Shown piece by piece: positions 42,865-43,237 of a stretch of 64,000 nucleotides of DNA. The stretch comes from Eledone cirrhosa. Its lineage: Eukaryota. The notes under the pieces were generated by a model. It saw only the letters and a program-made list of their open reading frames with translations, was not told the origin of the DNA and made no database searches. The translations under genes and the position numbers were made by a program. The stretch's first letter is position 1. Every line of letters begins with the position of its first letter. The stretch spans positions 329,344,001 to 329,408,000 of the forward strand of contig OZ024743.1 in assembly GCA_964016885.1 (NCBI GenBank), given 5' to 3'.

Positions 42865-43237
42865 GAGAATTAGTATATCTACCAACATATGTATACAGAT
42901 GTATACTCATGCAAGCAAATATATATGTTATGTCTTAGTACCTTTGTGGTTCTATGCAGGGGGATGCAGAACAATTATATGAAAGACGTAAAATAAGAAA
43001 ATTTTAAAAATTAAAAATTAACTTACTTACTAAAGCTTTGTTCCATCCACTGAATTATTATTTTGATGCGGGTTCCTAGTGTCCGCGCATTGCCTGGGAA
43101 CTTAGCTGAGAATAGACTCCCTGATGACGTAATGAATTATCTATAGTTATCTTACGTAACTATATTTATCCCCTTACAGAAATTTTAGTAAGTAAGTAAA
43201 TTTTTTATTTTTTAAATTTTCTTATTTTACGTCTTTT
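42865..43237. mobile_element. Short family B insertion with internal inversion
   Basis: Same two termini as 14774-16290. Partial HHR core at 43121. TA flanks. Confidence 0.85.

Follow-up and report, generated by a model that had tools for sequence, protein, structure and literature searches.

Two-armed insertions with constant, unequal ends in a 64-kb window of Eledone cirrhosa, probably primed from both target strands at two RNA-defined sites

The DNA analysed here, a single 64-kb stretch of Eledone cirrhosa (hereafter the window), is AT-rich animal DNA, rich in microsatellites and retroelement debris. It holds two insertions of one repeat family (family A), namely a 1.5-kb copy at 14774-16289 (A1) and a 370-bp copy at 42865-43236 (A2). 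In each of them two arms stand head-to-head, (TA)n runs border the insertion on both sides, and one arm carries a tail that the other lacks. The outer end with the tail is called the long end here, and the one without it the short end. The features of the two insertions are the following:

42767..42850, no strand: left (TA)n target run of A2, read from the sequence
42851..42864, plus: (GA)7, a candidate stutter of the reverse transcriptase (RT) start, not in the template; internal copies of the site are without such a run
42865..43033, minus: tail-bearing arm of A2, with the 115-nt tail and a further 53 nt or so; the RNA sense strand is minus
42876..42921, minus: predicted tail hairpin of A2, its edge about 10 nt from the long end (folding z -2.7)
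43034..43236, plus: short arm of A2, RNA sense plus, with about 165 nt of template missing from the other arm
43121..43182, plus: putative hammerhead remnant of A2; a 20-nt deletion took helix III and the cut site
43237..43527, no strand: right (TA)n run of A2
14766..14773, plus: (GA)4 at the long end of A1, not in the template
14774..15629, minus: tail-bearing arm of A1, in which a non-coding unit of about 538 nt is repeated 1.6 times in tandem
15629..16289, plus: short arm of A1, 1.2 units
16153..16229, plus: minimal hammerhead-like motif of A1, with more copies on the minus strand at 15560 and 15022

Both insertions start with gagaattagtatat (at 14774 in A1 and 42865 in A2) and have ttacgtcttt as their other outer end (at about 16289 and at 43236), and in both the left arm bears a one-sided tail of 115 nt. 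Counting template positions from the short end as 0, the arms of A1 reach to -740 and -661, while in A2 the tail-bearing arm reaches to -53 and the short arm to about -223 (203 nt plus the 20-nt deletion). The coordinates and template positions thus confirm what an earlier note on this DNA had claimed, namely the same ends and the same tail with different inversion points. The two tails are unlike at 12-13 of 115 positions (approximately 10% divergence), and a dust-filtered comparison of the 2-kb flanks of A1 and A2 returned zero matches. Because the flanks are not shared, a segmental duplication is excluded for this pair, and the independence that the note had assumed holds: A1 and A2 are independent insertions from related templates. 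The family A sample comprises two insertions, and all counts given below come from this one window.

Inverted arms in a TA context resemble miniature inverted-repeat elements, and the common ends could accordingly be sought in one segmental duplication or in DNA transposons with terminal inverted repeats. This explanation is refuted by flanks that are not common, centres that differ and ends that are unequal, and another family of the window (family H, below) has the same build around a reading frame of a Penelope-like element (PLE); we give it practically no chance. On the other hand, family A combines an inverted truncated copy beside a tandem, a one-sided tail and a (TA)n target, which is the make-up of a PLE-type insertion. 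Inverted arms with a tail are a known PLE signature, as the earlier note had stated (PMC8557442, PMC2377424), and for endonuclease-bearing (EN+) PLEs the literature describes partial tandems, an inverted 5'-truncated copy, a one-sided tail of 30-40 bp and a bias to (TA)n (PMC8557442, PMC3846280, PMC2377424). The insertions described here share with them the head-to-head arms, the one-sided tail, the tandem units, a hammerhead-like motif near the end and the (TA)n target. Unlike those described for EN+ PLEs, the tails here measure 45-161 nt and family A is without a reading frame; furthermore, the pairing of ends was counted and the target microhomology measured in the present study.

The longest stop-free run of the family A unit (about 538 nt) is 72 codons in six frames. 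Judged from its sequence, family A is not an autonomous PLE, because it contains no open reading frame with a telomerase-like RT and a GIY-YIG endonuclease, and it appears to work like a retrozyme-type unit moved by a PLE. Neither a longer partner nor a partner protein of family A was found in the 64-kb window. A hammerhead-like motif is present on one strand of each arm. The strand of the motif orients the RNA: both RNA 3' ends point outward. Across 14 regions, which were picked after the motifs had been seen, the motif lay on the assigned strand in 12 and on the other strand in none. The left arm of A1 has two motifs 538 nt apart, and families D and E are alike in this respect; in A1, D and E, non-coding tandems thus carry a type I hammerhead-like motif in consecutive units. 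In the A1 copy at 16153..16229, the predicted cut would follow 16224, at a distance of 65 nt from the short end. Since the arms of A1 span 1.6 and 1.2 units, the cDNAs passed through the ribozyme sites.

The minimal hammerhead of PLEs is described as a conserved core with a helix I of 4-5 bp, a long helix II and a palindromic helix III, with an unpaired base after position 9 and the G10.1-C11.1 pair directly before GAAA (PMC4209133). The family A motif has this core and a helix III that is palindromic; its helix II is long, with 6 + 8 bp, and its helix I short, with 5 bp in the two inner copies and one substitution in each outer copy. In both A1 and A2, an extra A separates the G-C pair from GAAA, and the G10.1-C11.1 pair does not lie directly before it. 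No hammerhead family occurred among the best 150 of 151 Rfam matches for the window, nor among the 23 rows returned for 16100-16660; the hits in both searches were hairpin look-alikes. Helix II is closed by a mismatch next to the core, and not by the usual G-C pair, in A (43121), D (23647), J (59580) and K (62198). The hammerhead-like core of family E (27790-28050, minus) begins with TTGATAA, which would replace the C3-G8 pair by U3-A8.

Animal non-LTR retrozymes are non-coding hammerhead tandems that have been proposed to depend on PLEs (PMC7229834, bioRxiv 10.64898/2026.07.22.740005). The units described here are likewise non-coding tandems with a putative type I hammerhead, and their lengths of 432-591 nt lie within the 51-972 bp reported in the preprint. 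Unlike the retrozyme motif, the motif here is of the minimal PLE type. The retrozyme papers argue from homology and co-occurrence, whereas the insertions here themselves carry the PLE end signature. A 25-nt motif of the tail had 0 matches in metagenome contigs, and a protein-alignment scan returned four loci in other organisms, of which none (0/4) had a hammerhead-like motif and only one had a self-match, of 19 nt, so that no locus could serve for comparison.

Further families of the window, with the reading frames in two of them, are:

29076..29266, no strand: family G copy 1 (G1), 80-nt tail at left
45913..46140, no strand: family G copy 2 (G2), 80-nt tail at right, orientation opposite to copy 1
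16363..16716, no strand: family B two-armed insertion, 66-nt tail
23506..24381, no strand: family D, a non-coding unit of 432 nt in tandem; a counter-example, as both arms stop at the short site
27645..29041, no strand: family E, a non-coding unit of 591 nt in tandem, with a tail of 161 nt and a long end that has 6 nt of microhomology
36642..38265, no strand: family H two-armed insertion, 45-nt tail
36832-37764, plus: 5'-truncated PLE reading frame in family H
43528..43651, no strand: family M insertion M2, whose arms do not overlap and leave a template gap of about 20 nt
43671..44111, no strand: family I two-armed insertion, 84-nt tail
59397..59793, no strand: family J two-armed insertion, 86-nt tail
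59809..62508, no strand: family K two-armed insertion, tail at most 157 nt, its end uncertain
60837-61298, plus: GIY-YIG-like frame in family K
62524..63431, no strand: family L pair, both ends short; a counter-example, or two separate insertions

As had been noticed earlier, family G behaves as family A does, with an 80-nt tail in both copies. The two copies have opposite orientation, and their flanks have in common hits of 36-65 nt only, at non-matching positions. The one-sided tails previously seen at 16363 (66 nt), 36642 (45 nt), 43671 (84 nt) and 59397 (86 nt) were confirmed, and that at 59809 stands as a tail of at most 157 nt with an uncertain end. The tandem units of family E are identical over 650 nt, and this insertion is therefore very young.

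The family H frame (36832-37764) has 60% identity to a protein of Octopus vulgaris, and a relative matched GIY-YIG with an E-value of 2.5e-4, below the Pfam cut-off. For eight frames of the window, Pfam gave five without a family, two with chance-level hits only and one with an RVT_1 hit. The GIY-YIG-like frames at 20907-21941 (minus) and 60837-61298 (plus) carry the kind of CxC-X5-C linker by which the Hydra clade has been described (PMC8557442). As the cysteine linker of family H differs from that of these frames, at least two PLE clades are probably present in the window.

Different families lie next to each other on common TA runs at 14290-16990 (L-A-B-L), 27617-29270 (E-G), 43237-44135 (A-M-I) and 59363-63450 (J-K-L); TA runs are therefore reused as landing sites. 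A dispersed repeat (60492-60638) lies centrally in insertion K, bordered on either side by short repeats of flank sequence, and recurs at 18560, 45241, 51045, 51309 and 55211. Elsewhere, long GTG/GTT-rich minisatellite arrays extend over 1-4630 (77-bp period) and 51869-55190, and broken RTE-like LINE fragments over 8345-11155 and 22463-23500, the latter interrupted by insertion D.

We then asked how the ends are paired. The 101 self-hits of the window gave 15 inverted pairs, from which three were dropped as their element ends do not face outward (17009-17271, 17377-17795, and 38359-38572) and to which M2 was added. In the resulting hand-picked set of 13 insertions, which very short arms would escape, 11 combined a long with a short end, two combined two short ends and none combined two long ends. 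The excess of long-short pairs over independent choice was significant among insertions (P = 0.011) and among families (9/11, P = 0.033). It supports the use of the two sites on opposite strands, as the earlier note had proposed; the two short-short insertions (2/13) speak against it. One of the dropped pairs, at 17377-17795, is a 420-bp palindrome that is centred on (TA)17 and mirrors both an element end and the CA/TG microsatellite flanking it. It has the look of a tail-to-tail product, not a head-to-head one, of fold-back copying at a TA run, and 38359-38572 is similar.

The same end was found in two or more separate copies in families A, G, M, L, and H, in agreement with the claim of two fixed sites per family, which has already been published for an anole PLE (PMC11167929). 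Near the right margin of the window, an older family H end (63700-63722) terminates at the very base that also closes the short end at 38265. The anole protein, PAc (Poseidon of Anolis), was described to cut and extend both strands in vitro and, in 2024, to start in vitro at two internal sites, one at either boundary of the tail; it uses uncleaved RNA, is a predicted dimer and shows no target homology (PMC11167929). The insertions here resemble this system in that two internal starts bound the tail, that both strands would be cut and extended, that a start lies near a stem-loop and that the cDNA runs through the ribozyme site. PAc starts without target homology and has no strand difference in bulk, whereas the ends here share 3-6 nt with the target and bear a (GA)n stutter. 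The model of the PAc paper, in the parts available, does not address the inverted arm (PMC11167929).

How the second arm is made can be judged from the template that each arm holds. In three insertions (A2, H, and M2), each arm holds template that the other lacks, and copying of the cDNA by itself is therefore excluded there. Single priming, after which the cDNA folds back and copies itself, is compatible with A1, E, and G1, where the tail-bearing arm is also the longer one. Being impossible for A2, H, and M2, it is refuted as a general mechanism, and in A1 the mirror partners are not the most similar pairs; we consider it very improbable. Specifically, the left outer unit of A1 equals the right inner unit over 124 nt, including a 4-nt deletion common to both, while the mirror partners are three substitutions and an indel apart. 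Similarly, the short arm of family D has no differences to the inner unit and three to the outer unit. With two cases (A1 and D), these off-register matches may be taken as weak evidence, and they misfit a reading in which both primers sit in one unit of one RNA.

Arms overlap in six of the seven insertions measured, M2 being the exception, and strand displacement, a multimeric RNA or two RNAs are therefore needed. In LINE-1 twin or postulated dual priming, both target strands also prime cDNA, giving inverted fragments with a variable centre; synthesis begins first at the poly(A) tail and then at an opportunistic second site, and the fragments do not overlap (PMC2837659). Unlike in LINE-1 as so described, both sites are fixed here and arms overlap in 6/7. 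Non-overlapping inverted fragments with an internal deletion were found in one of seven insertions (M2), and not in family A. Twin priming in the LINE-1 sense, which the earlier note had invoked, thus fits M2 and fails for the other six, whose arms overlap (PMC2837659). A target-site duplication, a further trait of twin priming, would be masked by the (TA)n sequence.

The overlap fits well with a variant of our preferred reading, in which dual priming occurs on two RNAs or two units of a multimer, each arm having its own enzyme, and the long-short bias stems from an asymmetric protein dimer and not from two sites on one unit. The off-register identity of arms in A1 and D agrees with it, as do the predicted dimer of PAc (PMC11167929) and the dual priming postulated for LINE-1 (PMC2837659). 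Nevertheless, the arms of M2 do not overlap, and its tail-bearing arm fails to reach the short site by about 20 nt, as though it had met a block on a single RNA; moreover, the pattern in D hangs on three substitutions. We regard this variant as a real possibility, though as one that falls short of being probable.

The junctions show an overlap of 0-1 nt in A1, D, and E and of about 3 nt in A2 and M2, and that of family H has a short templated duplication. Such junctions are easier to explain if two cDNA ends were joined than by palindrome self-priming (PMC3846280). In the latter scenario, proposed in PMC3846280 and PMC8557442, an antisense transcript primes itself at a palindrome, and staggered cuts by the endonuclease resolve the intermediate and leave a one-sided tail. 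The near-palindromic centres of G1, G2, B, and I would be in line with this, but those of G probably lie in or beside the ribozyme hairpin, and the junctions of A1, D, and E, with their overlap of 0-1 nt, are without a palindrome. In addition, both types of end have target microhomology and the same pyrimidine-rich context, and start sites were later mapped in vitro to the tail boundaries (PMC11167929). We therefore think self-priming of this kind unlikely.

The earlier note had further claimed that short arms stop at TA or TATA and that microhomology sets the sites. In the ten families where the continuation of the template is known, the short end overlaps with the TA run by 5, 4, 4, 4, 3, 3, 3, 2, 1, and 1 nt, the value of A2 (5 nt) having been read by eye from the alignment. 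At least 3 nt were found in 7/10 families, where random breakpoints in the same arms would give about one (P = 7e-6; 6/9 families and P = 6e-5 without family M). The two long ends with known template overlap by 6 nt (E) and 5 nt (A). Hence, most short arms stop as claimed, and not all of them: families I and K have a 1-nt overlap each, and the left arm of family D ends at the usual site though its flank has no TA run.

In its strong form, the claim makes microhomology to the (TA)n target the sole determinant of both sites, and would account for 7/10 short ends and both long ends of known template lying at alternating TA stretches. It leaves unexplained that the family A unit has six alternating TA stretches of at least 4 nt, four of which are not used as ends, and that the overlap is 1 nt in I and K and the D arm lies in a non-TA flank; PAc, too, starts without homology in vitro (PMC11167929). 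This explanation is distinctly improbable, slightly more so than antisense self-priming. The enrichment stands, and the note's wording that the sites are "set by microhomology" was too strong: since most TA stretches are unused, I and K share 1 nt and D ends at a non-TA flank, homology only refines the site, and something else defines it.

Pyrimidines make up 71% of the final 12 nt of RNA ahead of the ends, compared with 55% of the arms. Compared with other TA runs, pyrimidines account for 68% before the ends and 52% beside those runs (P = 2e-5, with copies of the same family not collapsed). Depletion of G was considered as an end signal and rejected: G was scarce relative to the arms (6% and 16%), but in the comparison with other TA-run sides the values were 8% and 12% (P = 0.13). 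The family A tail is predicted to fold into a 19-pair hairpin about 10 nt from the long end, with z of -3.8 in A1 and -2.7 in A2. Of its five variable pairs, one is compensatory, three are one-sided with pairing kept and one is broken; covariation between A1 and A2 was not above shuffles (142/500). Such a stable hairpin is not general, as z fell below -2 only for both family A tails among nine tail folds.

Between the TA run and the long end lie (GA)4 in A1 and (GA)7 in A2. Both terminal copies of the long site have a (GA)n run and neither of the two internal copies does, and GA runs adjoin TA runs at only 2 of 114 other TA-run sides. The simplest reading is slippage of the primer on CUCU beside the start site, although the run may also reflect subsequent growth of the microsatellite, or insertion that favours TA-GA junctions. 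Slippage at the 3' repeats of LINEs is known; a paper on slippage at initiation in PLEs was not found in the open-access literature. Together with the hammerhead-like motifs, the tandem non-coding unit and the two short-short insertions (23506-24381 and 62524-63431), the (GA)n runs go beyond what the earlier note had reported.

Taken together, the insertions are best read as products of reverse transcription primed by both target strands at two RNA-defined sites, a reading we hold to be probable. Family A would be a hammerhead-bearing non-coding tandem unit moved in trans by a PLE protein. The endonuclease would cut both strands of a (TA)n run, and the freed 3' ends would prime RT on the element RNA, one at a downstream site and the other 115 nt upstream. 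The sites would be fixed by the RNA and bound protein (pyrimidine-rich stretches and the tail hairpin), while a UA stretch of 3-6 nt would pair with the target end and give the exact register. Near the long site, the new primer would slip on CUCU and add (GA)n. The two cDNAs would then converge, stop variably and join with little or no microhomology, leaving a head-to-head insert whose outer ends are constant and unequal and whose centre varies.

The ends, tails, junctions, independence of insertions, microhomology excess and long-short coupling on which this reading builds are observed in the window, whereas cutting and extension of two strands, two start sites and the predicted dimer are taken from the literature (PMC11167929); we infer the order of priming, the role of the dimer, the slippage and the mobilisation in trans. 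Against the reading, the start sites described in vitro have no target homology and no strand difference (PMC11167929).

The basic two-armed pattern is already known PLE biology, to which a modest new mechanistic inference is added here. The window adds the pairing of long with short ends, the microhomology of short ends, arms with exclusive template and the (GA)n stutter at long ends. Among open-access papers, we found none that ties the inverted arms of PLEs to two start sites, twin priming or target microhomology. PMC8557442 and PMC3846280 count the mechanism of tandem and inverted PLE insertion among the open questions, as bioRxiv 10.64898/2026.07.22.740005 does the mobility of animal retrozymes.

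As a more far-reaching and somewhat doubtful suggestion, PLE integration might be concerted and two-ended by default, with an asymmetric dimer placing one active site at each RNA start site and priming from both cut (TA)n ends. The inverted copy and the tail would then form one signature, the enzyme would stutter on a short template repeat at initiation like its telomerase relatives, and the same machinery would move retrozyme-type units. If the coupling, the microhomology and the stutter hold genome-wide, the inverted arm would be tied to the start sites seen in vitro, and sharp predictions would follow for the existing PAc assay.
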